Below are positions 7,289 through 55,381 of a DNA stretch of 64,000 nt, piece after piece. The notes beneath the pieces were generated by a model that was given only the letters and a program-made list of their open reading frames with translations, was not told the DNA's origin and searched no databases. This DNA comes from Escherichia coli. GTDB lineage: Bacteria > Pseudomonadota > Gammaproteobacteria > Enterobacterales > Enterobacteriaceae. Positions within the stretch are counted from its first letter, which is position 1. Each line of letters begins with the position of its first letter. The stretch lies in NCBI RefSeq assembly GCF_030013205.1, contig NZ_CP122648.1. The stretch is one strand, 5' to 3'. The translations under genes and the position numbers were made by a program.

Positions 7289-8143
7289 TTAACCTGCAAT
7301 AGCCATTCCTACCGTCATGTGCAGGCCATAAAAGAGCACACGCCCGATCATCTCACCGCCAAGTATGAGGATTAGCCCCAGAATAAGTCCGGCAACGTGA
7401 GGTTCACGGCGACGAATGAGCGGACAAAGCCAGCATCCTAGACCTGTGCATAACAATACCACACGCCAGACCTGTAAGGAGGCGTAATCTGGTACCAGTG
7501 CGCTGGCTTGTTGTACGGATGAGTGAATAGACGCCAGAGACAAACCTTGCAGCACAATCACCCCGGCACAAGCGATCAGCGCCAGAACGCTAATGATGGC
7601 AAATGTTGTGGTATTAAATGTAACGCGGGCTGCCCGCAGAATTGTGGCAGCAAGTATTGGACCGCTCAACAATACTGTCAGGAAGAAAGCCAGCGTAGTG
7701 TAACCGTTATACCAGGTTGGCACTGTGTCGATTTGATACACGCAGGTCATCATCCAGACGAAAATGACGCCGAGCGCCATGCTGACAAGTAACCAGAGTT
7801 TCCCCAACGCTTGCGGCATTTTACCGATGACCGCCACCAGCCACCATAATCCGCCAACGGCAAAAAATATGGAACCGGCAGCAATCTCGTTACTCAGACC
7901 AGAAGCTCCGATTCGATTCAGCGAGTTAAACGCCCGCAGTGGGGATCCCAGGTGCATGACAGAGGCAATAAACCCGATGCCCATCAACAGCCAGAGGAAA
8001 AACATGCCACGAACAATGTGCTGACGGTCTGCGTCATTTTTGGCGGCGAACCAGCCAATTCCGCTAACAATCAGCGCGCCTACTACGCATTGACCCAATA
8101 CGGTAAAGATAACCAGTGGCCATTCATGCCATCCATTTCCCAT
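7289..8143 (-). CDS. ynfH: DMSO-reductase-type membrane anchor subunit YnfH (DmsC paralogue)
   Basis: ORF 7289..8383 but real start is the ATG at 8141-8143 (MGNGWHEWPLVIF...), 284 aa, 8 TM-like segments; 1 nt after ynfG stop region. Confidence 0.85.
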   Translation of the reverse strand: MGNGWHEWPLVIFTVLGQCVVGALIVSGIGWFAAKNDADRQHIVRGMFFLWLLMGIGFIASVMHLGSPLRAFNSLNRIGASGLSNEIAAGSIFFAVGGLWWLVAVIGKMPQALGKLWLLVSMALGVIFVWMMTCVYQIDTVPTWYNGYTTLAFFLTVLLSGPILAATILRAARVTFNTTTFAIISVLALIACAGVIVLQGLSLASIHSSVQQASALVPDYASLQVWRVVLLCTGLGCWLCPLIRRREPHVAGLILGLILILGGEMIGRVLFYGLHMTVGMAIAG

Positions 8144-8144
8144 T

Positions 8145-8762
8145 TTACACTTCCTCCGGATTAGCCAGATAACCAGTGGTATCGCCGGTTGGGCGGCTGT
8201 TGGCGTTAGGTTTGATAACGATATTGGGTTTTGTGAAATGCGCGCGCGGCAGTGGCGCGACGGCAGCCAGAGTGCCGTGCTTCTGGCGCAGCTCTTCAAT
8301 TGGACCGAACTCAAGTGCACGCAGCGGGCAGGATTCGACACATATGGGTTGTTTCCCCTCGGCGACGCGCGAATAACAACCATCGCACTTCGTCATGTGC
8401 CCTTTTTCAGCATTGTACTGTGGCGCGCCGTACGGACAAGCCATGTGGCAGTAGCGGCAGCCGATACAAACATCTTCATCAACCACCACAAAGCCATCTT
8501 CACGCTTATGCATTGCGCCGCTGGGGCAGACTTTTGTACATGCGGGGTCATCGCAATGGTTACAGGAGATGGAGAGATAATAAGCGAACACGTTCTGGTG
8601 CCAGACGCCATTATCTTCCTGCCAGTCGCCGCCAGCATATTCATAAATACGGCGGAAACTGACTTCCGGGCCAAGATCTTTAAAATCTTTGCACGCCAGT
8701 TCGCAGGTTTTACAGCCAGTACAGCGGCTGGAATCGATAAAAAATCCATATTGTGTGGTCAT
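8145..8762 (-). CDS. ynfG: 4Fe-4S ferredoxin-type electron-transfer subunit YnfG (DmsB paralogue)
   Basis: 205-aa ORF with four CxxCxxCxxxCP-type cysteine clusters. Confidence 0.9.
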   Translation of the reverse strand: MTTQYGFFIDSSRCTGCKTCELACKDFKDLGPEVSFRRIYEYAGGDWQEDNGVWHQNVFAYYLSISCNHCDDPACTKVCPSGAMHKREDGFVVVDEDVCIGCRYCHMACPYGAPQYNAEKGHMTKCDGCYSRVAEGKQPICVESCPLRALEFGPIEELRQKHGTLAAVAPLPRAHFTKPNIVIKPNANSRPTGDTTGYLANPEEV

Positions 8763-8772
8763 GGGCTACTCC

Positions 8773-11199
8773 TTAAACCTTTTCGATCTGGACAAGATTG
8801 CTGTGCGACGGGTTTCCCTTTGCCAGCGGTGAAGGGCGGTGAGAGGTCAGAATATTGATACTGCCGCCGTGATCGACCCGGTCACCAAACATATCCGCTT
8901 TAAGCCACGCACCTTGCCCGATGGCGGTAACGCCAGGCAGAATACGCGGAGTCACTTTTGCGGCAATCAGCATTTCTCCATTATTGTTAAATACCCGCAC
9001 GGTATCGCCATGACGGATACCGCGTGCCTGAGCATCAATAGGGTTGATCCACACCTCTTGTGGGCAGGCCTGCTGTAACACATCAATATTGCCGTAGCTG
9101 GAGTGGGTACGCGCTTTGTAGTGGAAGCCCGTTAGCTGCAGTGGATAGGTTTTCCGCAGGGGATCGTCCCAGCCATCAAAACCTGGGGTATACGCAGGAA
9201 GGGGATGAATAATTTCATCTTTTTTCAATTCCCAGGTATCCGCAATCGTCGCCAGTCGTTCAGAATAAATTTCGATTTTCCCCGAAGGTGTTTTCAACGG
9301 GTTTGCCTGTGGATCTTCACGGAATGCGCGGAAAGCGACGTAGTGTTCTTCCGGGCATTTTTTCTTAAAGATCCCGGTCGTTTTCATCTCCTCGTAGTCG
9401 GGCATCTCAGGGTTACGTTCCTTCGTTTTCGCATGGAGATATTTGATCCATTCGTGCTGACTGCGGCCTTCAGTAAAGGTTTGATAAACGTCTGGTCCTA
9501 AGCGTTTGGCGACTTCGCTCAGCATCCAGTAGATGGGTTTGCGTTCAAATTTTGCTGAGGTTGCGGGTTGGGCGAGGATCACATAGCCCATATTCCCGGC
9601 AGATTCATGAGAGATAAGGTCTTCTTGCTCTGTTGGCATCAGGTCGGGCAACAGGATATCGCAATACTTAGCCGAGGCAGTCATGAAGTGGTCAATGCCA
9701 ACAATCATCTCGCACTTGCTGTCATCCTGAAGCACCTCATGGGTGTGATTGATGTCGCCATGTTGATTGATCAATGTGTTACTGGCGTAGCACCATAAAA
9801 ACTTGATGGGGACATCCAGTTTTTCTTTTCCACGAACACCATCACGGGTCGCGGTCATTTCCGTACCGTGGTCGATGGCATCTGTCCATGTAAAGACGGA
9901 AATCTGCGTTTTAACAGGATTCTCGAGCATCGGGAACCATTCTACCCCCAGATCCCAGCTACCTTCGCGTACACCTGAGTTGCCGCCGTTTATGCCGACG
10001 TTACCGGTGAGAACGGAAAGCATGGCAATAGCGCGGGACGTTTGTTCGCCGTTGGAGTGTCGTTGTGGCCCCCAACCCTGACAAATATAAGCAGGTTTTG
10101 CTGAACCGATCTCTCGTGCCAACTGGATAATTTTTTCTGCCGGGATGCTGGTGATTTTTGCTGCCCATTCCGGCGTTTTAGCTATGCCGTCAGGCCCTTC
10201 GCCCAGAATATAGGCTTTATAATGCGCGTTACGTGGTGCGTTGGCGGGCAGCGTTTTTTCATCGTAACCAACACAATATTTGTCGAGAAATGGCTGATCG
10301 ACCATGTTTTCAGTAATCAGTACCCAGGCAATCGCACAGGCCAGTGCGCCATCGGTGCCTGGGCGAATTGGCAGCCATTCATCTTCACGCCCGGCAGCAG
10401 TGTCGTTATAACGTGGATCGATGACGATCATGCGTGCGTTTGAACGTTCTCGGGCTTGCTCGACGTAGTAAGTGACACCACCGCCGCTCATCCGGGTTTC
10501 TGCCGGGTTATTTCCGAACATAACGACCAGTTTCGTATTGGCTATATCATCCGGGCTGTTGCCATCATTGGCACCGAACATATAACTCATTGCGGCACTG
10601 ATTTGAGCGGTACTGTAGCTGCCATAGCGACTGAGAAAACCACCGCAAGAGTTCATCAGACGGTACGGGACGTTCGAGTTGGTGATGTTTCCGCCATCTA
10701 CGCCTGTTCCGTACAGGACATGTACAGCCTCATTGCCGTATTCTTTCAGGATCCGCCGAAGATTATCACTGATGGTATCCAGGGCTTCATCCCAACTTAT
10801 CCGTTCAAATTTACCTTCACCGCGCTTGCCGACGCGCTTCATGGGATATTTCAACCTATCAGGATGATTCATCCGTCGGCGGATAGAGCGCCCGCGTAAA
10901 CACGCTCGAACCTGATGATTACCGTAGACGTCGTCACCTGTCGTATCAGACTCCACCCAGTACACGGTGTCATCTTTCACATGCAAACGTAACAGACAGC
11001 GGCTCCCGCAGTTAACGGTGCAGGAACTCCAGACCGCTTTCTCTTCTACCGGTGCCTCTGCCGCTCGGACCATTTGGGAAAATGGCAGAGTGAAAGCACT
11101 GCTTGCCAGCGCGAGACTGCCAAGTGCGGAGGTTTTCATCAGACTTCTACGGCTGATTTCAGCCTTCATGAGCGCCTCTGTGGTATGGATTTTCATCAT
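8773..11199 (-). CDS. ynfF: molybdopterin oxidoreductase catalytic subunit YnfF (DmsA paralogue, Tat signal)
   Basis: ~807-aa ORF with twin-arginine signal (SRRSLMKTSALG) and N-terminal Cys cluster; tandem paralogue of ynfE. Confidence 0.9.
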   Translation of the reverse strand: MMKIHTTEALMKAEISRRSLMKTSALGSLALASSAFTLPFSQMVRAAEAPVEEKAVWSSCTVNCGSRCLLRLHVKDDTVYWVESDTTGDDVYGNHQVRACLRGRSIRRRMNHPDRLKYPMKRVGKRGEGKFERISWDEALDTISDNLRRILKEYGNEAVHVLYGTGVDGGNITNSNVPYRLMNSCGGFLSRYGSYSTAQISAAMSYMFGANDGNSPDDIANTKLVVMFGNNPAETRMSGGGVTYYVEQARERSNARMIVIDPRYNDTAAGREDEWLPIRPGTDGALACAIAWVLITENMVDQPFLDKYCVGYDEKTLPANAPRNAHYKAYILGEGPDGIAKTPEWAAKITSIPAEKIIQLAREIGSAKPAYICQGWGPQRHSNGEQTSRAIAMLSVLTGNVGINGGNSGVREGSWDLGVEWFPMLENPVKTQISVFTWTDAIDHGTEMTATRDGVRGKEKLDVPIKFLWCYASNTLINQHGDINHTHEVLQDDSKCEMIVGIDHFMTASAKYCDILLPDLMPTEQEDLISHESAGNMGYVILAQPATSAKFERKPIYWMLSEVAKRLGPDVYQTFTEGRSQHEWIKYLHAKTKERNPEMPDYEEMKTTGIFKKKCPEEHYVAFRAFREDPQANPLKTPSGKIEIYSERLATIADTWELKKDEIIHPLPAYTPGFDGWDDPLRKTYPLQLTGFHYKARTHSSYGNIDVLQQACPQEVWINPIDAQARGIRHGDTVRVFNNNGEMLIAAKVTPRILPGVTAIGQGAWLKADMFGDRVDHGGSINILTSHRPSPLAKGNPSHSNLVQIEKV

Positions 11200-11256: not shown

Positions 11257-13683
11257 TTATATTTTTTCGATCTCGACCAGATTAGTGTGCTGCGGGTTTC
11301 CCTTCGCCAGTGGTGAAGGGCGCAGAGTGGTTAGCGTATTCACACAGCCGCCGTGGTCGATTTTATCGCCAGACATATTGGCCTCGTGCCAGGCTCCCTG
11401 GCCCATAGCGCTAACCCCAGGGAGAATGCGTGGTGTTACTTTGGCTGGTAGCCGAACTTCGCCACGATGGTTAAACACCCGCACCATATCGCCGTTGGCA
11501 ATCCCACGTTTCTGTGCGTCTATAGGGTTGATCCACACCTCCTGACGGCAGGCAGCCTTCAGGACATCAATGTTGCCGTAGGTCGAGTGAGTACGGGATT
11601 TGTAATGGAAACCAAACAGTTGCAGTGGAAAGGTACTACGTTCAGGGGAGTCCCAGCCTTCAAAGGTTGAGGCATAAACCGGCAGTGGGCTTATCACTTC
11701 ATCTTTTTCCAGTTCCCAGGTACGGGCAATTTCCGCCAGCTTGCTGGAATAAATTTCAATCTTACCGGAAGGCGTTTTAAGTGGATTTGCCTCGGGGTCG
11801 TCACGAAATGCTTTGTAGGCGACAAAATGACCATTAGGATCTTTACGCTTATAGATACCCATTTTTTTCAGTTCGTCGTAAGACGGTAACGCCGGATCTT
11901 TGGCAAGCATTTTGGCGTACAGATGTTGTAACCATTGTTCCTGCGTGCGACCTTCTGTGAACTTTTGATAGACGTCAGGTCCAAGACGTTTCGCGACCTC
12001 ACTCAGGATCCAGTAAATCGGTTTGCGTTCGAATTTTTCGCTGGTGACTGGCTGAAGGAAAATGAGATATCCCATGTTACCGGCGTAGTCGTTAGGAATA
12101 ATATCTTCCTGCTCAACGGTCATCAGGTCTGGCAGCAGAATGTCGGCATATTTTGCCGATGAGGTCATAAAGTTTTCGATGACCACAATCATTTCGCATT
12201 TCGATTCGTCCTGCAGAATTTCATGCGTTTTGTTGATGTCAGAATGCTGATTAACGAGGGTATTTCCCGCGTAGTTCCAGATGAACTTAATGGGCACATC
12301 CAGTTTATCTTTGCCGCGGACGCCGTCGCGGATTGCCGTCATTTGCGGGCCATGATCGATAGCATCTGTCCAGCTGAAGCAGGAGATTGACGTTTTGACC
12401 GGATTATCAAGCACCGGCAGGCGTTCTATGGTAATGGTATAGGTCGATTCACGCGCGCCACTATTTCCGCCGCTGATGCCGACATTGCCCGTCAGAATAG
12501 GCAACATCGCAATAGCGCGTGCAGTCAGCTCGCCGTTTGCCTGGCGTTGCGGTCCCCAGCCCTGACAGATATAAGCGGGTTTTGCTGTGCCAATTTCACG
12601 CGCCAGTTTGATGATACGGTCCACCGGGATACCGGTAATTTGCGAAGCCCACTGCGGCGTTTTCGCTGTTTTGTCGTCTCCTTCACCAAGAATATAGGCT
12701 TTATAGTGACCATTTTTTGGTGCATCTGCGGGTAAGGTTTTTTCGTCATAGCCGACGCAGTATTTATCGAGAAAAGGTTGATCAACGAGATTTTCGTTAA
12801 TCAATACCCAGGCAATACCCGCAACCAGCGCGGCATCGGTGCCCGGGCGAATAGGTAGCCATTCGTCTTCACGACCAGCAGCCGTATCGGTATATCGCGG
12901 ATCGATAACAATCATTTTTGCGTTCGATTTCTCTCGCGCTTTTTCAAGAAGATAAGTGATGCCACCGCCGCTCATGCGGGTTTCTGCCGGGTTGTTACCA
13001 AACATCACGACCAGCTTGCTGTTTTCAATATCCGTGGTGCTGTTGCCATCATTACTGCCGTAGGTGTAGGGCATGGCACAGGAAATTTGCGCGGTGCTGT
13101 AGGAGCCATACTGGTTGAGTGAACCGCCGTAGCAGTTCATCAGGCGTTTGACCGCCGAGGCTGATGGTGAAGAGCGGGTCATATTGCCGCCAACAATCCC
13201 CGAAGAGTACTGAATATATACAGCCTCATTGCCATATTGTTCGACGGTTTTTTTCAGGCTACTGGCGATAGTATCCAGGGCTTCATCCCAGCTAATCCGT
13301 TCGAATTTGCCTTCGCCGCGTTTGCCCACGCGTTTCATTGGGTAATTCAAGCGATCGGGATGATTAATACGCCGACGGATGGAGCGACCGCGCAAACAGG
13401 CACGTACTTGATGATTGCCATACTCGTCGTTGCCGGTGTTGTCAGTTTCCACCCAGGTCACTTCATTATCTTTAACATGCAGACGAAGTGCACAGCGGCT
13501 ACCACAGTTGACGGAACAGGCACCCCAGACCACTTTCTCGCTGGCCTGTTGTACCGCTGCCGCTGCACTGCGCAGGGTGAACGGTAAAGAAAAACCGCCT
13601 GCAGCCAGCGCCAGAGAACCTATCGCGGTAGATTTAACGAGTGTTCTGCGGCTGATGCCCACCATTTGTTCATTTTTGGACAT
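11257..13683 (-). CDS. ynfE: molybdopterin oxidoreductase catalytic subunit YnfE (selenate/DMSO reductase family)
   Basis: 808-aa ORF, twin-arginine signal (SRRTLVKSTAIG), collinear with ynfF along its length. Confidence 0.9.
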   Translation of the reverse strand: MSKNEQMVGISRRTLVKSTAIGSLALAAGGFSLPFTLRSAAAAVQQASEKVVWGACSVNCGSRCALRLHVKDNEVTWVETDNTGNDEYGNHQVRACLRGRSIRRRINHPDRLNYPMKRVGKRGEGKFERISWDEALDTIASSLKKTVEQYGNEAVYIQYSSGIVGGNMTRSSPSASAVKRLMNCYGGSLNQYGSYSTAQISCAMPYTYGSNDGNSTTDIENSKLVVMFGNNPAETRMSGGGITYLLEKAREKSNAKMIVIDPRYTDTAAGREDEWLPIRPGTDAALVAGIAWVLINENLVDQPFLDKYCVGYDEKTLPADAPKNGHYKAYILGEGDDKTAKTPQWASQITGIPVDRIIKLAREIGTAKPAYICQGWGPQRQANGELTARAIAMLPILTGNVGISGGNSGARESTYTITIERLPVLDNPVKTSISCFSWTDAIDHGPQMTAIRDGVRGKDKLDVPIKFIWNYAGNTLVNQHSDINKTHEILQDESKCEMIVVIENFMTSSAKYADILLPDLMTVEQEDIIPNDYAGNMGYLIFLQPVTSEKFERKPIYWILSEVAKRLGPDVYQKFTEGRTQEQWLQHLYAKMLAKDPALPSYDELKKMGIYKRKDPNGHFVAYKAFRDDPEANPLKTPSGKIEIYSSKLAEIARTWELEKDEVISPLPVYASTFEGWDSPERSTFPLQLFGFHYKSRTHSTYGNIDVLKAACRQEVWINPIDAQKRGIANGDMVRVFNHRGEVRLPAKVTPRILPGVSAMGQGAWHEANMSGDKIDHGGCVNTLTTLRPSPLAKGNPQHTNLVEIEKI

Positions 13684-19043: not shown

Positions 19044-20339
19044 TTAATTTTTCATTGCTTCGTTATGGGGCATGGTTGGGGCAAACTCGCTTAACTGTGT
19101 ATTTAACAAAGCTACCTGTGCATTATTGTTTTCAGACATCCATTTTCCGTATACCTGAAATACCATTTGCGCATCTGCATGGCCCATCTGGTTTGCTATA
19201 AATGCCGGGTTAGCACCAGCTGTCAGCGACCAGCAGGCATAAGTATGTCTCGACTGATATGATTTTCGATGGCGGAGTCCGGCACGTTTTATCGCTGCGT
19301 CCCACATCTGCCTTATTGAGTCAACGGTAAAATGGTCACCATAATTTTTTACTCTCGCTGACACTTCAGGTTGAAAAACAAAGGTGCATTTTTGTTTTTC
19401 TGTTCTGCCATACTCTCTGAGGTGAACATCAATGATATGCTCTTTGCTCAGTCTCGTTAATGTCATCTGACTCCGGAGAGCGTCGATTGCTGGCTTAATA
19501 AGATGAATGACCCGATTGGTTCCCGCCTGTGTTTTTGGTACCGTGAAACGGTCTTTTGCTAAATTTCTCCTGATCATCATTGTTCCATTTTTCAGATCTA
19601 TGTCCTCCCATCCAAGTGCACACAGCTCACCAGGGCGAACTCCAGTATAAACAGAAACACACCATAAATTTTTTGCTTGCTGATTTCTGCACGCATCGAT
19701 AAGACGGATAAATTCTTCCCGCGAAAGAGGATCCGGAATGGTTCTTGATTCCTTTAATGGCGAGATCCCCTTAAACGGATTATCTGCCAGGTAACCGTTA
19801 TCAACACCAAACTGGAACACGGCGTTAAGATTTGTCATGTAATTATTTACAGTTACAGCCGATCTCCCTGGTTGTGTAACAATATAGTTACTTTTGGGGA
19901 TCTGGTATCCAGTCAGTAACTCTTTACGAACCTCCAGTAATTTTTCTTTATTAATCGATGAGGCAAGATTTTTTTCACCGATTATGCTCAGGATATTTTT
20001 GATGACGGCACGGTATGTGTTGAGTGATGTTTTGGCGACTTCAGTTTCTTTCAGTGCCAGAAATTTTTCAGCCAGTTCTTTTATGGTTAAATCTTGTCGG
20101 GCCTCACCAAATTTTTCCAGATTGCGTGAGGAGGGAAACTGTTTTGCATAGTCGAAAACACCAGTTTTTATTGCGTAACAAACAGAGGAGCGTAGTTCAC
20201 CTGCAACGCGCCTGTTTTTTGCTGTGTCAGGAACCCCCAGATTTTCCCTGACTCTTACGTCTTTATAAACAAACCAGATACGTAATTTCCCTCCATGGTT
20301 TTCCACGCCTGTCGGATATTTCATTTCAACTTCTCTCAT
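19044..20339 (-). CDS. intQ: tyrosine-type phage integrase (apparently intact)
   Basis: 431-aa ORF adjacent to att core, with C-terminal catalytic R...HxxR...Y-type region (RHRKSYQSRHTYACW); internal ATG at 20324 (MKYPTGV) may be the true start. Confidence 0.85.
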   Translation of the reverse strand: MREVEMKYPTGVENHGGKLRIWFVYKDVRVRENLGVPDTAKNRRVAGELRSSVCYAIKTGVFDYAKQFPSSRNLEKFGEARQDLTIKELAEKFLALKETEVAKTSLNTYRAVIKNILSIIGEKNLASSINKEKLLEVRKELLTGYQIPKSNYIVTQPGRSAVTVNNYMTNLNAVFQFGVDNGYLADNPFKGISPLKESRTIPDPLSREEFIRLIDACRNQQAKNLWCVSVYTGVRPGELCALGWEDIDLKNGTMMIRRNLAKDRFTVPKTQAGTNRVIHLIKPAIDALRSQMTLTRLSKEHIIDVHLREYGRTEKQKCTFVFQPEVSARVKNYGDHFTVDSIRQMWDAAIKRAGLRHRKSYQSRHTYACWSLTAGANPAFIANQMGHADAQMVFQVYGKWMSENNNAQVALLNTQLSEFAPTMPHNEAMKN

Positions 20340-25367: not shown

Positions 25368-25381
25368 TAAAGGTGTTTTAA

Positions 25382-25612
25382 ATGCTTAAAACTGACGCTC
25401 TTTTGTATTTCGGTTCAAAAACAAAACTTGCACAAGCAGCAGGTATTCGTTTGGCTTCGCTTTATAGCTGGAAAGGGGATTTAGTTCCCGAAGGTCGCGC
25501 GATGCGTCTACAGGAGGCATCTGGCGGGGAGCTTCAGTATGATCCCAAAGTTTATGATGAATATCGTAAGACGAAGCGGGCGGGGCGGTTGAACAATGAA
25601 AATCACTCCTGA
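25382..25612 (+). CDS. dicC: Cro-like regulator DicC
   Basis: 76-aa ORF MLKTDALLYFGSKTKLAQAAGIRLASLYSWKG... Confidence 0.9.
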   Translation: MLKTDALLYFGSKTKLAQAAGIRLASLYSWKGDLVPEGRAMRLQEASGGELQYDPKVYDEYRKTKRAGRLNNENHS

Positions 25613-25919
25613 ACAGGCTCGTGAGGCTCTGGATGCCTGGATATGTCGACCAGGAATGACACAGGAGCAGGCGACGATATTAATCACTGAAGCATTCTGG
25701 GCTTTGAAAGAGCGCCCGAACATCGATGTTCAGCGTGTCACATATGAAGGTGGCGCGATTGATCAGCGAGCGCTTGGCGTTATCTGGTCATCACCTGACG
25801 GAGAAATACGTCGCTACGACAGTCGCCTAAACATAATCTGTCGCGAGTGCCGGAAGAGCGAAGTTATGCAGCGCATACTGGCTTTCTATCAGGGTAATTT
25901 TCAGGACGTGGCGCAGTGA
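25596..25919 (+). CDS. hypothetical prophage early-region protein
   Basis: 107-aa ATG-initiated ORF overlapping the dicC stop by 17 nt; its TGA overlaps the GTG start of the next gene (GTGAGTG). Confidence 0.45.
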   Translation: MKITPEQAREALDAWICRPGMTQEQATILITEAFWALKERPNIDVQRVTYEGGAIDQRALGVIWSSPDGEIRRYDSRLNIICRECRKSEVMQRILAFYQGNFQDVAQ

Positions 25920-26362
25920 GTGCACCGGCAACCATTCTTGATATGTGCTGTGGCAGCCGCATGTTCTGGTTCGATAAGTCTGACGAACGGGCGATATTCA
26001 GCGATATCAGAAAAGAAGGATACACATTACGCAATGGGAGACGCTTGATTATCAGCCCTGACATTATCGCAGATTTTCGTGCATTATCATTTGCAGACGC
26101 ATCTTTTTCGATGGTTGTATTAGACCCTCCGCATCTTGAGAGTGTTGGTGATAACGCCTGGATGGGAAAGAAATATGGACGGCTGAATAAAGATGCCTGG
26201 CGTGATGATTCGCGACAGAGATTTAAAGAAGCCTTTCGGGGGTTGAGGCCGCACGGCGTTCTGATTTTTTAATGGAATGAAACGCAAATACCGGTAAGCC
26301 AGATTCTGGCACTGACAGACAGAAAACCTGTTATCTGTCAACGAACAGGGAAAAAACGATAA
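25916..26362 (+). pseudogene. small SAM-dependent methyltransferase-like gene interrupted by an in-frame TAA
   Basis: LDMCCGS (motif I-like) then VVLDPPH (motif IV-like, DPPY/NPPY class) and LRPHGVLIF; TAA at 26270-26272; same frame stays open 29 more codons (WNETQIPVSQILALTDRKPVICQRTGKKR) with no start codon of its own. Confidence 0.5.
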
Positions 26363-26694
26363 AACCCACTGGATTATTTTTATGAAAGAGGCATCCAGTG
26401 AGTAGATTCGTAAGGCTACAGATACGTATATCTGAATAATTAAATTCAGTTCTGTAAATAAAATTTAATCCTTAACCGGATGGATTTCTGCACCCTCAGA
26501 ACATCAGGAGGCCGCCCGAAAGGGCGGTAGTGAAATGCGAATGTTCAAAATTATTATTGAAACGGGAATAGCTGGTGGAGATTTTGAGGATGTATTCGAA
26601 GTGGACGATGACGCAACACCTGAGGAAATTCATGACGGAGCATAAGAAATTTTCTTTAACTACTGCAATTACTCATACCACGAAATAAAAGACG

Positions 26695-26886
26695 ATGAGG
26701 AAGAACAAAGTGGCTGATTTTTGTTCAGCTAAATATAACATCAGTTTTGAAGAGCGGGATGAACTATTAATGGACTATGGTGAGTTACGCGGTGGAAGTG
26801 CTGCTGATGTCGAATCCTAGCGTGATGACTATGAAGCGGGAAAAACTCCGGTCGAAGCATATTGTGATGAGTGGGGCGATGAATGA
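26695..26886 (+). pseudogene. short acidic ORF with single in-frame TAG
   Basis: MRKNKVADFCSAKYNISFEERDELLMDYGELRGGSAADVES-TAG(26818)-RDDYEAGKTPVEAYCDEWGDE-TGA; downstream segment has no start codon. Confidence 0.35.
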
Positions 26887-27170
26887 GCGAGATTAATTAT
26901 CAGGAAGGGCATGAAACGGCGGGGCAAGCAAAACCAGTGGCATGGCGATATCGCTACGTGAAAAAAGGCGTTACGGACTTTCAGGGGAAGTAGTGGTCTG
27001 GTGACTGGAAATATGTACCGAAAAAAGAGGATTGTAACGACAGGCCGAACTATCAAATTCAGGCCTTATTCACTGCCTCACCAGTCCCAGTTACATCAGA
27101 AGAACTGGTTAAAGCTGTGCACTTTTATGAACAACTAAAACGCGAAAATCCACCAACATCCGGCAACTAG
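26883..27170 (+). pseudogene. short ORF with single in-frame TAG
   Basis: MSEINYQEGHETAGQAKPVAWRYRYVKKGVTDFQGK-TAG(26991)-WSGDWKYVPKKEDCNDRPNYQIQALFTASPVPVTSEELVKAVHFYEQLKRENPPTSGN-TAG; downstream segment lacks a start. Confidence 0.35.
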
Positions 27171-27424
27171 ATTAATGGATTAACTATGTCGGTTAAACGA
27201 CCAGCCAACTGAAAAAGCGGAAACCTGATTACAGGTTGCCAGATAAGGCAATGAGCTACCTGGCGCGGAACGGACTGATAAGTATGGGGAATGTTTTACG
27301 ATGAACCTTTAGACTAAAGAGTTTGTAACGCTATGTAAGTGATTTTTTCTGGTTTAGATATTTATATGTCCGGCCAAATTGAGGTGTGTTTAAATGTAAT
27401 TGCACATTGATTGTAGGAGGAATA

Positions 27425-27604
27425 ATGAAAAACGCATTGCAGTTTTTGTTTGTTGCGTTCTGGTTGTTCGCATCATGTATGCCCATCATCTTCACAGCAA
27501 GGTATATGGAAAAAGTTGATGTTTTGATATTAATATTTGGATATATAAATGCCCTTTTTTTAGGGGTGTTCATGGCGGTCATGTGCATTGAATACTGGCG
27601 GTAA
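27425..27604 (+). CDS. small two-TM membrane protein (59 aa), function unknown
   Basis: ATG at 27425 preceded by AGGAGG 7 nt upstream; MKNALQFLFVAFWLFASCMPIIFTARYMEKVDVLILIFGYINALFLGVFMAVMCIEYWR; very AT-rich codons. Confidence 0.5.
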   Translation: MKNALQFLFVAFWLFASCMPIIFTARYMEKVDVLILIFGYINALFLGVFMAVMCIEYWR

Positions 27605-27938
27605 ATACAGCGAACTCCATTGGTTTAGTTGGATATTTACTGTGCTGGACAAAAACGGTTTGCGGGGAAATCTTAGTTAAGTAGAATGACTGCGGGTGCT
27701 TGAGGCTATCTGCCTCGGGCATGGACACCAACGGCAGATAGAGAAAAGCCCCAGTTAACATTACGCGTCCTGCAAGACGCTTAACATTAATCTGAGGCCA
27801 ATTTCATGCTAGACACATGTAGGTTAGCCTCTTACGTGCCGAAAGGCACGGAGAAGCAGGCTATTGTTAACACCAAGTTGTAATGTCCCCTTTGAACCAT
27901 TCTAAAATGTCCCCAGACAATTCTCTGGGGGATTTTTC

Positions 27939-29252
27939 ATGATCAAAGAGACTGTTACGATGAGTCATAAGGAACTCCACCGACTTCAGATTATTCAGGA
28001 ACAAGCTGCGGCACGCATTGGCATTTCTATTCGGCAGGTTAAACGTCTGGTGCAACGGTATAGAAATGAAGGGCCTTCTGGTCTGGTTTCCCACCGACGT
28101 GGAAAGCGTCCTAATAATTCCTTTTCTACTGAATTCAGAGCAACAGTAATTTCACTCCTCAAAGGCCGTTACGCTGATTTTGGACCTACGTTTGCGTGCG
28201 AAAAATTGCGCGAGATACACGGTTTATCTTTATCCGTTGAAACTCTCAGAAAGTGGATGATAGAAGAGGGGTTATGGCGTGAACGCCGTCGTAAAATTGC
28301 CCGTATATATCAACGCCGCATGCGACGACCATCTTACGGTGAACTGATCCAGATTGATGGCTCACCTCATGACTGGTTTGAAAATCGAGGCCCCAGATGT
28401 ACACTGATCGTTTTCATTGATGATGCCACCAGTGCGTTGATGGCGTTGCGTTTTGTGCCTGCTGAAACAACCCGGGCTTACATGGAAACCCTCCGGGGTT
28501 ACCTTAATGATCATGGCGTACCGCTCGCTCTCTACTCTGATAGACACAGTATATTCAGGGTAAATAACCCAGAGCGGGAAGGTGAGCTGACCCAGTTCAC
28601 TCGTGCGATAAAGACACTGGGCATCGAGCCAATCCATGCCAACAGCCCGCAGGCAAAAGGGCGGGTAGAGCGCGCCAATCAGACACTACAGGACAGGCTG
28701 GTCAAAGAAATGCGGCTTCAGAATATCAGTGATATTGAAACAGCAAATGCATGGTTGCCGACCTTTATTGAAGCCTATAACAACCGGTTCGCTACGTCGC
28801 CTCGTACTACTGATAATGCTCATCTTGATGTGCACCATTCTGAAGAGGAACTGGGTTATATCTTCAGCCTACAGGCGAAGCGCGTTCTGTCTAAAAATCT
28901 CACTTTCCAGTACAAAAGCAGTGCGTTTCAGGTACGCAGTGAGGGCCGGGGATATCGACTTAGGCATTCGGTTGTTACTGTATGCGAGAACTTTGACGGT
29001 GAAATTAACGTTCTGTATGACGGGAAAGCGCTGGGCTGGGAAAAGTATGTTGATGGCCCGGAGCCTATACCACTGGATGATGAAAAGAGTGTCCATGAAC
29101 GAGTGGATAATGCCCGTATTGATTTACGCTCAAAATACTATGTTAAACCTAAAGCTGACCATCCCTGGCTTACGCGCCGAACGCAAAGTCATCAGCAAGT
29201 TAAGCCCCCGAAGTTACCTAAAAAGAAGCCTGATCCCGATAAAAAAGATTGA
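27939..29252 (+). CDS. DDE transposase with N-terminal HTH and integrase-core (rve) domain, IS481/ISNCY-like
   Basis: 437-aa ORF; HTH IGISIRQVKRLVQRY; catalytic-looking residues in LIQIDGSPHD, LALYSDRHSIF and KGRVERANQTLQD; basic Lys/Pro-rich C-terminus. Confidence 0.8.
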   Translation: MIKETVTMSHKELHRLQIIQEQAAARIGISIRQVKRLVQRYRNEGPSGLVSHRRGKRPNNSFSTEFRATVISLLKGRYADFGPTFACEKLREIHGLSLSVETLRKWMIEEGLWRERRRKIARIYQRRMRRPSYGELIQIDGSPHDWFENRGPRCTLIVFIDDATSALMALRFVPAETTRAYMETLRGYLNDHGVPLALYSDRHSIFRVNNPEREGELTQFTRAIKTLGIEPIHANSPQAKGRVERANQTLQDRLVKEMRLQNISDIETANAWLPTFIEAYNNRFATSPRTTDNAHLDVHHSEEELGYIFSLQAKRVLSKNLTFQYKSSAFQVRSEGRGYRLRHSVVTVCENFDGEINVLYDGKALGWEKYVDGPEPIPLDDEKSVHERVDNARIDLRSKYYVKPKADHPWLTRRTQSHQQVKPPKLPKKKPDPDKKD

Positions 29253-29585
29253 AACCAAGATCGATTCGGTTGAGTGCATATCCATTCATAGGGTAGATTC
29301 TTAAGTCGCGTTTCTGGTGTTCATTTTCGGGTGGTTTGTTACTTGTTTTACCGGGGATATGCCAGAAACGCGCTGAGTCAGTCTGGGCGGTGCGCGTAAT
29401 GAGGCGTTATGGTAAATAGCCTATGCTAATGTCCGCTAAGAGCAAGAAGCGGAAGTTGGCAGTTTTGTGGACTGTCCCCACAAAAGTGACTACAGAAATA
29501 GTTGCAATTCATAATTGATCATGGGTTGTCAGTTAAACTCGTGGCGATTTAAATAGACTAATTGGGAGTGCGTCCATTACTTATA

Positions 29586-29635
29586 TCTTGTAATGTTAAC
29601 TATCAGAAATTCTTGTAATGTTAACTATCAGAAAT
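29586..29635. repeat. perfect 25-bp tandem direct repeat x2 (tcttgtaatgttaactatcagaaat)
   Basis: Read directly; each unit contains a GTTAAC palindrome; lies just downstream of the flxA terminator. Confidence 0.85.
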
Positions 29636-29676
29636 GATACAAAGATAATATGTCTTTAAAGAAAAGGCTGATGGCG

Positions 29677-29699
29677 AAAAGTGGCCCGATGAGGGCCAC
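29677..29699 (-). terminator. rho-independent terminator of flxA
   Basis: Minus-strand hairpin GUGGCCC-ucauc-GGGCCAC followed by UUUU, 15 nt after the flxA stop. Confidence 0.5.
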
Positions 29700-29713
29700 A
29701 ATACGGCTGTCAC

Positions 29714-30046
29714 TTAGACGTAAATATCAATGGTGCCAGCGGTATTTGTATCGTCTTTTTTCTCTTCTTTTTTATCAGGCTGAACTGTCGCGTCTTCATT
29801 CTTTTTCTCTGCCTGCTGCCTTAACAACTGCTCCAGTTGAGCCCAGAGGCTTTCAATTTGCTTCTGTACCAATGCAGCCATTTCTTTTTTCTGCTGTGTC
29901 GTCATCCCCTCTTCCGATGAGATTTTCCCAAGCTTTTCAGTCAGCACCTGAATTTGTCTTGTGATTTTGGCTATTTCTGATGTTCCTTCCGGGGCGGAGT
30001 TGTTTGAAATAACGGTTGAGGTATTTCCCTGAATTGTGACAGACAT
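29714..30046 (-). CDS. flxA: FlxA (FliA-regulated protein, coiled-coil, Lys/Glu-rich C-terminus)
   Basis: 110-aa ORF MSVTIQGNTSTVISNNSAPEGTSEIAKITRQIQVLTEKLG... Confidence 0.9.
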   Translation of the reverse strand: MSVTIQGNTSTVISNNSAPEGTSEIAKITRQIQVLTEKLGKISSEEGMTTQQKKEMAALVQKQIESLWAQLEQLLRQQAEKKNEDATVQPDKKEEKKDDTNTAGTIDIYV

Positions 30047-30069
30047 AGATTTCTCCTTTTAAAAAAGCA

Positions 30070-30096
30070 CTATCGGCATGCACAAAAAAATCTTTA
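30070..30096 (-). promoter_or_regulatory. sigma-28 (FliA) class promoter for flxA
   Basis: Minus strand reads TAAAGATT-N11-GCCGATAG, matching consensus TAAAGTTT-N11-GCCGATAA, about 25-50 nt upstream of the flxA ATG. Confidence 0.6.
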
Positions 30097-30248
30097 ATCG
30101 TATTTCTTGTGTCATTAATTGTTTGATGTTCAGATTGTTTTCCTCGCGGGCTGGCGCGCCTCAGAAAGTAAAGCTTGTTGACAGGGGTAAACGTTCGGCA
30201 ATAATTTTCTGCCGCATGCGGGTGTTGCATAAAACGTGTTACGTTCCT

Positions 30249-30554
30249 TTATCGACAGGTCAGGTCACCGCTCACCCGCCGACGAGAAAGCAACACTGAC
30301 ATGCTAAAGCAAAAAATAGATGAATAAGTTGAGTTGTGCATATGTAGCCTGACCGTCACAAAGTATATGGTGTCTGTACCAGTAAGATGATGGCCGGACT
30401 CTTTAAAAACGAGCTGACCTGCACAATACAGGATGGACTTAGCAATGGCTGCTCCTGGCACAAAGCGGACAGTGATCACCGTTCTTACGACTACTTTCTG
30501 ACTTCCTTCGTGACTTGCCCTAAGCATGTTGTAGTGCGATACTTGTAATGACAT
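30249..30554 (-). CDS. ydfV: hypothetical prophage protein (ydfV position)
   Basis: 101-aa ORF between flxA and relB, divergent from relB as in K-12; symbol by position and length only. Confidence 0.45.
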   Translation of the reverse strand: MSLQVSHYNMLRASHEGSQKVVVRTVITVRFVPGAAIAKSILYCAGQLVFKESGHHLTGTDTIYFVTVRLHMHNSTYSSIFCFSMSVLLSRRRVSGDLTCR

Positions 30555-30578
30555 TTGTAATTACAAGAGGTGTAAGAC

Positions 30579-30818
30579 ATGGGTAGCATTAACCTGCGTA
30601 TTGACGATGAACTTAAAGCGCGTTCTTACGCCGCGCTTGAAAAAATGGGTGTAACTCCTTCTGAAGCGCTTCGTCTCATGCTCGAGTATATCGCTGACAA
30701 TGAACGCTTGCCGTTCAAACAGACACTCCTGAGTGATGAAGATGCTGAACTTGTGGAGATAGTGAAAGAACGGCTTCGTAATCCTAAGCCAGTACGTGTG
30801 ACGCTGGATGAACTCTGA
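30579..30818 (+). CDS. relB: RelB antitoxin (RHH)
   Basis: 79-aa ORF MGSINLRIDDELKARSYAALEKMGVTPSEALRLMLEYIADNERLPF... Confidence 0.95.
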   Translation: MGSINLRIDDELKARSYAALEKMGVTPSEALRLMLEYIADNERLPFKQTLLSDEDAELVEIVKERLRNPKPVRVTLDEL

Positions 30819-31105
30819 TGGCGTATTTTCTGGATTTTGACGAGCGGGCACTAAAGGAATGGCGAAAGCTGGGCTCGACGGTACGTGAACAGTTGAAAAA
30901 GAAGCTGGTTGAAGTACTTGAGTCACCCCGGATTGAAGCAAACAAGCTCCGTGGTATGCCTGATTGTTACAAGATTAAGCTCCGGTCTTCAGGCTATCGC
31001 CTTGTATACCAGGTTATAGACGAGAAAGTTGTCGTTTTCGTGATTTCTGTTGGGAAAAGAGAACGCTCGGAAGTATATAGCGAGGCGGTCAAACGCATTC
31101 TCTGA
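30818..31105 (+). CDS. relE: RelE mRNA interferase toxin
   Basis: 95-aa ORF MAYFLDFDERALKEWRKLGSTVREQLKKKLVEVLESPRIEANKLRG...; start overlaps relB stop (ATGA). Confidence 0.95.
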   Translation: MAYFLDFDERALKEWRKLGSTVREQLKKKLVEVLESPRIEANKLRGMPDCYKIKLRSSGYRLVYQVIDEKVVVFVISVGKRERSEVYSEAVKRIL

Positions 31106-31176
31106 ACCAAAGCATGACATCTCTGTTTCGCACCGAAGGTGACACTTCTGCTTTGCGTTGACAGGAGAAGCAGGCT

Positions 31177-31332
31177 ATGAAGCAGCAAAAGGCGATGTTA
31201 ATCGCCCTGATCGTCATCTGTTTAACCGTCATAGTGACGGCACTGGTAACGAGGAAAGACCTCTGCGAGGTACGAATCCGAACCGGCCAGACGGAGGTCG
31301 CTGTCTTCACAGCTTACGAACCTGAGGAGTAA
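31177..31332 (+). CDS. hokD: Hok-family membrane toxin HokD (RelF)
   Basis: Manual translation: MKQQKAMLIALIVICLTVIVTALVTRKDLCEVRIRTGQTEVAVFTAYEPEE (51 aa); below the ORF-track cutoff. Confidence 0.85.
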   Translation: MKQQKAMLIALIVICLTVIVTALVTRKDLCEVRIRTGQTEVAVFTAYEPEE

Positions 31333-31401
31333 GAGACCCGGCGGGGGAGAAATCCCTCGCCACCTCTGATGTGGCAGGCATCCTCAACGCACCCGCACTT
31401 A

Positions 31402-53455: not shown

Positions 53456-53819
53456 ACACCACCAATGGCTGGCCTGGATTTATCGCCAGACCAGCCTCGT
53501 TATAGCAGTAATTGCAGCAGCTGGGTGAGGGCAAACTTCACCGCTAATGCGAATGCCGTTTCGCAGTCGCCAGCAAAATTACTTTTTTTGTATACCCTTC
53601 CGTTATAATAATTTTCAAATTTATAAATCTGATTGTTCTGAAATATGTTTAAGACTCTTTAATCTTCTTCTTACTTTAGTGAGTTAAATTCTCTTAATAT
53701 TTGACAGCTAGTTGCCTGATTTTAAATGCCTTATAACAATTGGCAGTATTCTTATTTGTCAATTATAAAAATAGCAACCAGACTTAATAAGTCAAACCAA
53801 ACGCAATTAAGGAGTCAGT

Positions 53820-54212
53820 ATGAAATTTCAGGCCATTGTATTAGCAAGTTTTCTTGTCATGCCTTATGCGTTGGCAGATGACCAGGGCGGATTAAAACAG
53901 GATGCAGCGCCACCGCCGCCTCATGCAATAGAAGATGGCTATCGCGGAACCGATGATGCAAAAAAAATGACCGTTGATTTCGCAAAAACCATGCATGATG
54001 GCGCTTCGGTTTCACTACGCGGTAATTTGATTTCTCACAAAGGAGAGGACCGTTACGTTTTTCGCGATAAGAGCGGTGAAATTAATGTTGTTATTCCTGC
54101 GGCAGTCTTTGATGGACGAGAAGTTCAGCCGGACCAGATGATCAACATTAGCGGTAGTCTGGATAAGAAAAGCGCTCCGGCCGTCGTTCGGGTCACTCAT
54201 TTGCAGAAATAA
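53820..54212 (+). CDS. ydeI: BOF (YgiW/YdeI) family periplasmic stress protein YdeI
   Basis: 130-aa ORF with signal peptide [19 protein letters not shown]. Confidence 0.85.
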
Positions 54213-54251
54213 AAATAAATTAGCCTGATGGCCTGAACTACTGGGCCATTA

Positions 54252-54290
54252 GGTTATTGGGTTATTGGGTTATTGGGTTATTGGGTTATG
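54252..54290. repeat. 8-bp microsatellite (GGTTATTG) about 4.75 units
   Basis: aggttattgggttattgggttattgggttattgggttatgc, 40 nt after the ydeI stop, preceded by an atggcc...ggccat hairpin. Confidence 0.85.
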
Positions 54291-54490
54291 CTATTTGTCA
54301 TCCTTTTAATTGCGATAATGCAGGCTTAATTTACAGAATTAAACACTTTTTTATCTGCTGATTTTGTTTCAAATCACAATGTTATCTCAGAGGTGATTCA
54401 TAACTTCGGATTTCTATGAAAATATTGACGTAATTTTGCTTTTCTCTCGTTAGAATAGCGCGCACAAGGAACTGTGAAAAAGGAGTGGCA

Positions 54491-55381
54491 ATGATCAAGA
54501 AGACAACGGAAATTGATGCCATCTTGTTAAATCTCAATAAGGCTATCGATGCCCACTACCAGTGGCTGGTAAGTATGTTTCGCAGCGTAGTCGCGAGAGA
54601 TGCCAGTAAGCCAGAAATAACGGATAACCATTCTTATGGACTGTGCCAGTTTGGTCGGTGGATTGATCATCTGGGACCACTCGATAACGATGAATTACCT
54701 TATGTTCGGCTAATGGATTCTGCCCATCAACATATGCATAACTGTGGTCGGGAATTAATGCTGGCTATTGTTGAAAATCACTGGCAGGACGCGCATTTCG
54801 ACGCCTTTCAGGAAGGGGTGCTTTCTTTTACTGCGGCATTAACCGATTACAAAATTTATTTGCTGACGATCCGTAGCAATATGGATGTTTTGACGGGATT
54901 GCCGGGTCGTCGGGTTCTTGATGAATCCTTTGATCATCAGTTACGCAACGCTGAGCCTCTGAATCTTTATTTAATGTTGTTGGATATTGACCGATTTAAA
55001 TTGGTTAATGATACCTACGGGCATTTAATCGGCGATGTAGTATTACGCACCCTGGCAACTTACTTAGCCAGTTGGACGCGCGATTACGAAACGGTTTATC
55101 GCTACGGTGGCGAAGAATTTATCATTATTGTCAAAGCGGCTAATGATGAAGAAGCATGTCGTGCAGGTATCAGAATTTGCCAGTTAGTCGATAACCATGC
55201 CATCACACATTCTGAAGGGCATATCAACATTACCGTGACAGCAGGTGTGAGTCGCGCATTTCCTGAAGAGCCTCTGGATGTGGTCATTGGAAGAGCGGAC
55301 CGGGCAATGTATGAGGGTAAGCAAACCGGAAGAAATCGCTGTATGTTTATTGACGAACAAAACGTGATTAACCGAGTTTAA
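54491..55381 (+). CDS. dgcZ: zinc-regulated diguanylate cyclase DgcZ (CZB + GGDEF)
   Basis: ORF 54485..55381; RYGGEEF GGDEF-type active site; N-terminal CZB-type His/Cys residues. Confidence 0.9.
   Translation: MIKKTTEIDAILLNLNKAIDAHYQWLVSMFRSVVARDASKPEITDNHSYGLCQFGRWIDHLGPLDNDELPYVRLMDSAHQHMHNCGRELMLAIVENHWQDAHFDAFQEGVLSFTAALTDYKIYLLTIRSNMDVLTGLPGRRVLDESFDHQLRNAEPLNLYLMLLDIDRFKLVNDTYGHLIGDVVLRTLATYLASWTRDYETVYRYGGEEFIIIVKAANDEEACRAGIRICQLVDNHAITHSEGHINITVTAGVSRAFPEEPLDVVIGRADRAMYEGKQTGRNRCMFIDEQNVINRV

Follow-up and report, generated by a model that had tools for sequence, protein, structure and literature searches.

The ydeI-dgcZ intergenic region

The window, by which we mean the whole 64-kb stretch of DNA analyzed here, matches the corresponding locus of E. 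coli K_EC180 with no substitutions and two gaps over 29.9 kb, and the gene positions used below are the RefSeq annotation of that strain carried over (window position = locus position + 34099). K_EC180 is a Stx2e-producing isolate from a weaner pig, and its genome is a PacBio assembly with Illumina polishing (PMC8071739). The coding sequence of ydeI, an open reading frame annotated in the identical K_EC180 locus as a YdeI family stress-tolerance OB-fold protein, occupies 53820..54212 on the plus strand, and the dgcZ ATG lies at 54491; the tandem array that is the subject of this analysis sits between the two genes, as an earlier note made from the window's letters had placed it. ydeI is stress-induced, and DgcZ, a diguanylate cyclase, drives poly-GlcNAc biofilm formation. 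Upstream of ydeI, ydeJ is an 81-bp remnant adjoining dcp (53500-53580; K_EC180 locus 19401-19481) in the window lineage, PCN033 and B2 strains, and an intact ydeJ flanks ydeI in K-12, O157 and O121. In the two B2 strains examined, ydeI itself is a 90-bp C-terminal remnant.

The dgcZ promoter was placed via the primers and fusion coordinates of a 2026 study of dgcZ in EPEC (PMC13131220). Mapping of its +2 reverse primer puts the -10 hexamer, TAGAAT, at 54451-54456 and the transcription start at 54462, both on the plus strand. The distal upstream segment defined by that study, -214..-75 in EPEC, corresponds to 54223..54386 on the plus strand (from supplementary tables 1 and 2 of PMC13131220, which list the primers and fusions) and holds both the array and an adjoining predicted CysB box.

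A terminator-like hairpin (54221..54256, plus strand) starts 8 nt past the ydeI stop codon. It was recognized as an inverted repeat with arms at 54221-54233 and 54244-54256, giving a stem of 13-14 bp and a loop of 8-10 nt, and was recovered in both RNA and DNA folds (-21.1 kcal/mol as RNA; -8.3 kcal/mol as DNA, z = -3.0). The hairpin is GC-rich and its 5' flank is A-rich. The earlier note had the array lying just after a hairpin; the hairpin is real, but the array does not strictly follow it, the first 2-5 array bases (GGTTA) forming the end of the 3' arm. The first repeat unit provides the last stem pairs together with a U-rich tail, UUAUUGGG, which has four U in eight positions and is interrupted by GGG. 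Our consensus terminator scan skipped this hairpin because the loop is too long and the tail has only those four U. The literature search returned no usable 3'-end mapping of ydeI.

The array itself spans 54252-54289, has no assigned strand, and consists of four copies of GGTTATTG followed by GGTTAT, amounting to 4.75 perfect copies in 38 bp. Counted from the dgcZ start site it runs from -210 to -173, with its 3' end 173 bp upstream of that site. Base 54290 (G) is out of register with the 8-bp repeat; the count of about 4.75 perfect copies made earlier thus stands, and the end coordinate of 54290 given with it was one base too long. Tandem Repeats Finder reported 54248-54289 (period 8, 5.2 copies, 97% matches, score 77), starting earlier than 54252 because the unit preceding the array (ATTAGGTT) is a one-mismatch copy. 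The units are identical, perfect and arranged head-to-tail, and no other array in the 64-kb window reaches as high a copy number. The repetition is far beyond chance: a two-unit probe allowing up to two mismatches had four matches at the array, against 0.07 expected from dinucleotide-preserving shuffles, and four matches were reached in none of 100 shuffles. Elsewhere in the window, at 29586-29635, a 25-bp sequence is perfectly duplicated in tandem (TCTTGTAATGTTAACTATCAGAAAT), and an ORF of 104 codons (29650-29964) has its ATG 15 bp downstream of the end of the duplication.

Both array strands gave a folding energy (dG) of 0 and are thus without self-structure. Rfam returned no match at E <= 1 in the array region, and a consensus scan of both strands called neither promoters nor terminators within the array, nor any promoter-like site beside it. 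Several candidate identities were considered and rejected. A promoter created by the array itself (TTGGGT...TATGCT, picked out by eye) was discarded because neither strand gave a consensus-scan call at that place, a known small RNA because Rfam is blank at E <= 1, and a hairpin-driven expansion because the array strands do not fold. A frameshift switch within an ORF was likewise set aside, the sole frame crossing the array being a 34-codon one that starts with TTG and lacks signals, and the minus strand being stopped in all frames. The array also behaves differently from dispersed repeat families (REP/BIME, ERIC and similar), as queries of 341 bp, 49 nt and 36 nt found a median of one place per genome.

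Copy number and its tempo of change in E. coli

The survey set comprised 5,426 complete E. coli genomes, searched with a 341-bp query across the locus, which gave a match in 5,381 of them. For 5,348 of the about 5,371 genomes with the locus, the single state was 1.75 copies (record span 317 bp). The array was expanded in the remaining 23, leaving 99.6% of E. coli without expansion, and the expanded alleles came in four sizes: 2.75 copies (325 bp) in six genomes, 3.75 copies (333 bp) in ten, 4.75 copies (341 bp) in two and 5.75 copies (349 bp) in five. When the ranking was sampled at even intervals, each of the 58 full-locus matches besides K_EC180 proved 24-25 bp shorter than the window's own locus. 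A 36-nt probe, whose match requires about 2.4 copies or more together with the right flank, was found exactly in the same 23 records only; it matched with one mismatch in 163 records (the perfect 1.75 allele) and with two mismatches in 4,395 (the imperfect allele), none of them expanded, and an independent probe counted 159 perfect 1.75 alleles. For O157-type and other divergent flanks (about 800 records), coverage came from the 341-bp search and the spread sample rather than from the short probes. Flank SNPs were zero in 22 of the 23 expanded records, and the sizes differed by whole units.

The hosts of the expanded genomes were domestic pig or wild boar in 22 cases and human in one, the pig and wild boar carriers coming from Korea, Japan, Belgium, the Netherlands, France, Denmark, the UK and Canada. 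Selection, instead of descent, might account for this confinement to pig-associated lineages on three continents. The earlier note had suggested comparing copy number across E. coli genomes, with an invariant repeat as the outcome that would speak against it. Copy number does vary, from 2.75 to 5.75, but the variation is confined to 23 genomes of one pig-associated lineage group and the locus is near-invariant otherwise; invariance was only narrowly escaped.

Beyond the complete genomes, JGI metagenome contigs scanned for the 2.75-copy junction gave no match, and a three-unit scan of 100,044 species genomes, with about 0.002 chance matches expected for a 24-mer, gave no enterobacterial match among the matches listed. 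A full-text literature search for the repeat sequence found no description of it, the only match being an unrelated insect paper. The array is invisible to repeat scans of the K-12, O157 and B2 reference genomes because it is unexpanded there and, as far as the full-text search shows, it is an undescribed but ordinary lineage-specific repeat. The GGTTATTG octamer is also a recurrent multi-locus microsatellite in Bacteroidota, where at least 126 arrays of 3-15 perfect units occupy at least 120 loci, for example in Niastella soli (locus 9887-9982), Leeuwenhoekiella parthenopeia and the Bacteroidia MAG 5_bin.51. These arrays often lie within degenerate RGTTATTR/GTTATTG arrays, at several separate loci per genome, and are unrelated by descent to the one in E. 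coli.

The tempo of change was estimated from 28-40 kb round the locus in 15 independent genomes, in which substitutions were counted. The core of clade A consists of eight genomes that are 0-3 substitutions apart over 28 kb and nonetheless include every one of the four sizes. The count is 4.75 copies in K_EC180 and ETEC4079, and 5.75 in ETEC1748, which has no substitutions from K_EC180; W13-16, ETEC1701 and ETEC6333 have 3.75, and ETEC4068 and ETEC4075 have 2.75 while differing by one SNP from W13-16 and ETEC1701 over 28 kb. Two outliers of the clade, EC556 (3.75) and CFSAN018748 (2.75), are 9-38 substitutions from the rest. In clade B, ETEC1738 (3.75) and HCP5S3_I2 (2.75) are separated by 10 substitutions, and clade C holds GMF054 with 3.75 and O169:H41 with 2.75 copies. 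The flanks of clades B and C diverge from clade A by about 0.8%, and both clades, except O169:H41, match clade A exactly across about 1.4 kb surrounding the array (-821 to +574), where PCN033 differs. This shared block would fit either old common ancestry or recombinational spread.

Parsimony requires at least six single-unit changes, with at least four in clade A and at least one in each of clades B and C. The tight part of clade A shows about three changes against a tree length of about 13 substitutions per 28 kb; as a rough figure for that part, the array changes at several thousand times the per-site substitution rate. Clonal sets, on the other hand, are constant in size (the five genomes with 5.75 copies, three with 3.75 and two pairs; ETEC6333/6334 and EC556/571/581 are among these sets), which argues against very fast switching, and the array looks like a moderately fast VNTR rather than a high-frequency switch. 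Its practical value lies in splitting otherwise indistinguishable pig Stx2e/ETEC isolates, given that four alleles occur within 0-3 SNPs per 28 kb.

The same comparison revealed changes elsewhere in the neighborhood. ETEC4068 and ETEC4075 share a deletion, near position 12950 of their own loci, of a PTS/porin/6-phospho-beta-glucosidase cluster, marB and most of marA, which leaves a truncated helix-turn-helix pseudogene beside marR (compare K_EC180 locus 25372-30916). In K_EC180, marR is annotated as frameshifted (locus 30937-31363, or about 65036-65462 by the window offset and thus outside the window), and it is intact in the closest relatives.

Origin of the array and its possible effects on ydeI and dgcZ

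An alignment of 11 alleles shows that the common E. coli sequence, CCATTA-GGGTATTG-GGTTAT-GC, contains an imperfect proto-repeat (GGGTATTGGGTTAT), and that the O157 allele diverges further (GGGTACTG). The window haplotype and PCN033 carry a T at 54254 (plus strand), which turns the proto-repeat into the perfect GGTTATTGGGTTAT. According to this alignment and the probe counts, about 4,400 E. coli genomes have G at this position and about 183 have T. All expansions are carried on the T allele, and the T allele is unexpanded in about 160 genomes, including ST95 strains (UTI89, APEC O1, S88), ATCC 11775 and PCN033; the substitution is therefore at most permissive and insufficient alone, and its association with expansion may rest on a single founding event. 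In O169:H41, an extra A-to-G change in the hairpin arm lengthens the perfect repeat leftwards. The T at 54254 is found on very different backgrounds (B2 ST95 and pig lineages), and would be either a long-standing polymorphism spread by recombination or a substitution that arose more than once.

From the distribution of these alleles, we infer a probable order of events. The imperfect proto-repeat would have come from the last bases of the ydeI hairpin together with the U-rich tail, and the G-to-T change at 54254 would then have created a perfect 6-bp direct repeat with 8-bp spacing. In one ancestor of the pig-associated lineages, a rare misalignment on the 6-bp homology may have duplicated one unit. 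The resulting repeat homology of at least 14 bp would have made slippage much easier, with single units repeatedly gained and lost thereafter.

Taken together, the array is most likely a lineage-restricted VNTR, born and changing by replication slippage and having little or no function. Its head-to-tail copies are beyond chance, its alleles differ by whole units between conserved flanks, and it changes faster than its surroundings. The slipped-strand mispairing invoked by the earlier note agrees with the whole 8-bp steps seen among strains that are near-identical over 28-40 kb; as a mechanism, it is suggested by the single-unit steps and by array strands without self-structure. Because the strands lack such structure, simple misalignment would be enough and no hairpin-driven mechanism is needed. 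The array itself is presumably neutral.

The possibility that the copy-number differences are assembly errors rather than biology can be dismissed almost entirely. Several of the assemblies do differ by scattered 1-bp indels (8-11 gap openings per 40 kb) that are typical of long-read consensus errors, but array lengths only ever differ by whole multiples of 8 bp, and at 22-46 bp the array is far below read length. K_EC180 has the Illumina-polished PacBio assembly mentioned above, same-study clonal sets are concordant (five genomes share 5.75 copies, three share 3.75, and two pairs match), and the four sizes come from laboratories in at least eight countries. The array might, as the U-rich tail of the ydeI hairpin, alter ydeI termination and hence read-through into dgcZ, a scenario that we regard as very unlikely. 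It is favored by the contribution of the first unit to both stem and tail, by the weakness of a tail with four U in eight, which makes some read-through plausible, and by the effect of the G-to-T change at 54254, which betters both the stem, raised from 11+2 to 14 pairs (in the model, a gain of about 1.7 kcal/mol), and the tail, where GUAUU becomes UUAUU. Intrinsic termination, however, is settled in roughly the first 8-9 nt after the stem, and the first 12 nt past the stem are UUAUUGGGUUAU in every T allele, whether it has 1.75, 2.75 or 4.75 copies. The hairpin is moreover kept in all allele models, and any effect would be attributable to the SNP rather than to copy number. In these models, copy-number expansion should leave ydeI termination unchanged, and only the SNP might alter it. 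Further downstream, the sequence from approximately -100 to the dgcZ ATG, including the -75..+2 region with its CpxR box, is invariant in 11 of 11 aligned alleles, and expansion alters only the spacing between the ydeI hairpin and the DNA downstream of it. The proposal in the earlier note that the repeat could alter terminator or promoter spacing was accordingly not borne out, the 12 nt past the stem being the same in every T allele and the -75..+2 promoter in all 11 aligned alleles. A similarly slim chance is given to the array folding, at 4.75 copies and above, into a sense-strand G-quadruplex (as DNA or RNA) that would affect replication, transcription or its own stability. The window allele contains at least four runs of at least three G with loops of 1-7 nt, in the form of a G3N5G3N5G3N5G3 motif at 54259..54285 on the plus strand (GGGTTATTGGGTTATTGGGTTATTGGG); in a regex scan of both strands, this was the sole canonical motif in the 64-kb window. 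The motif is present only at 4.75 copies or more, a size reached by 7 of the 23 expanded genomes. Its G4Hunter-style score of 1.20 is nevertheless borderline, equal to the usual lower cut-off, and the three 5-nt A/T loops are unfavorable. A minimum-energy fold by ViennaRNA with G-quadruplex energies preferred ordinary pairing over the quadruplex, and sizes on both sides of the threshold persist without visible discontinuity.

Tuning of dgcZ by the array is also unlikely, although here the position of the array gives more to consider. Unit changes would shift the binding or geometry of a regulator, be it at the predicted CysB box or at a copper- or Cpx-dependent element, and would thereby modulate c-di-GMP synthesis and biofilm in pig-adapted strains, as the Neisseria nadA and Haemophilus hmw tracts do. 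The array (-210..-173) lies inside the -214..-75 segment, which in EPEC alters the activity of dgcZ-cat fusions, the -214..+2 fusion being less active in LB than -75..+2, and which is required for the copper response, shown only by the longer fusion (PMC13131220). That fusion begins at the hairpin and includes the proto-repeat, in the 1.75-type sequence only. In the primer tables of the same study (PMC13131220), primers cysB1-3 begin at GGGTTATGC, GCTATTTG and CCTTTTAATTG, and the predicted CysB box should therefore begin, approximately, at or next to the 3' edge of the array, that is, at or beside its last repeat unit. Since the array is inside -214..-75 and abuts this box, it could conceivably act on dgcZ, and its copy number does differ between close relatives. 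Against this, the CysB box is listed as 'predicted' (from RegulonDB), and cysteine or sulfate had no effect (PMC13131220). The array is distal to the -10 hexamer, to the boundary of the CpxR-box fusion (-75) and to the start of the predicted CysB box, and upstream of it only the ydeI hairpin is mapped, leaving known spacing unaltered. Clonal re-isolates hold the same copy number, unlike fast contingency loci, and four successive sizes persist even though the DNA upstream of the array is rotated by about 274 degrees with each 8-bp step. In the pig strain HCP5S3_I2 (2.75 copies), dgcZ is split and inactivated by an IS91-family insertion (locus 8076-10679), and a broken dgcZ in one carrier argues against strong selection on dgcZ regulation in the array-bearing group.

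A more far-reaching idea is that the pig Stx2e/ETEC lineages possess in the array a lineage-specific DgcZ 'tuning knob' that would shift c-di-GMP output and biofilm or adhesion; judged from sequence, this is quite improbable. Such a device would work through unit changes in the distal segment, possibly combined with a quadruplex at 4.75 copies or more or with altered ydeI read-through, and if true would amount to contingency control by a repeat, a type of mechanism not established for E. coli. To our knowledge, short-repeat contingency loci are not known in this species. The array would carry greater weight if copy number altered dgcZ expression, given the role of DgcZ in biofilm, and we judge that unlikely. 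A slippage-driven VNTR with little or no function thus remains the reading we prefer, and as such the locus offers a clean natural case of microsatellite birth, running from proto-repeat to point mutation, rare first duplication and repeated unit changes.

Comparison with known repeat systems

The hairpin in whose 3' arm the array begins resembles an intrinsic terminator in being GC-rich, preceded by A-rich sequence and followed by a U-rich tail derived from the repeat unit, and departs from one in its GGG-broken tail, its loop of 8-10 nt and the absence of a call in the consensus scan. With the Neisseria meningitidis nadA (TAAA) and Haemophilus influenzae hmw1A/hmw2A (7-bp) tracts, the array shares a short, non-triplet unit 5' of a surface- or biofilm-related gene, and unit changes could shift the geometry of upstream regulator sites. 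However, the nadA and hmw tracts separate the gene from mapped regulator or start sites, and expression is known to track their copy number. The E. coli array is distal to all mapped elements, has at most six units and is stable in clonal isolates.

The E. coli MLVA VNTR loci (O157 and generic 'CVN' loci with 6-18 bp units) are likewise short perfect arrays that change by whole units among near-identical strains, are partly intergenic, are presumed to vary by slippage and have value as strain markers. Unlike these, the ydeI-dgcZ array is absent from the described loci in the full-text search, is unexpanded in the K-12, O157 and B2 references, and is polymorphic only in one pig-associated group (23 of 5,426 genomes). 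Its history agrees with the proto-repeat model of microsatellite birth, in which a single substitution perfects a 1.75-copy sequence and expansion occurs only on the perfect allele; it differs from that model in that there was maybe one founding event and in that about 160 genomes with the perfect allele are unexpanded.
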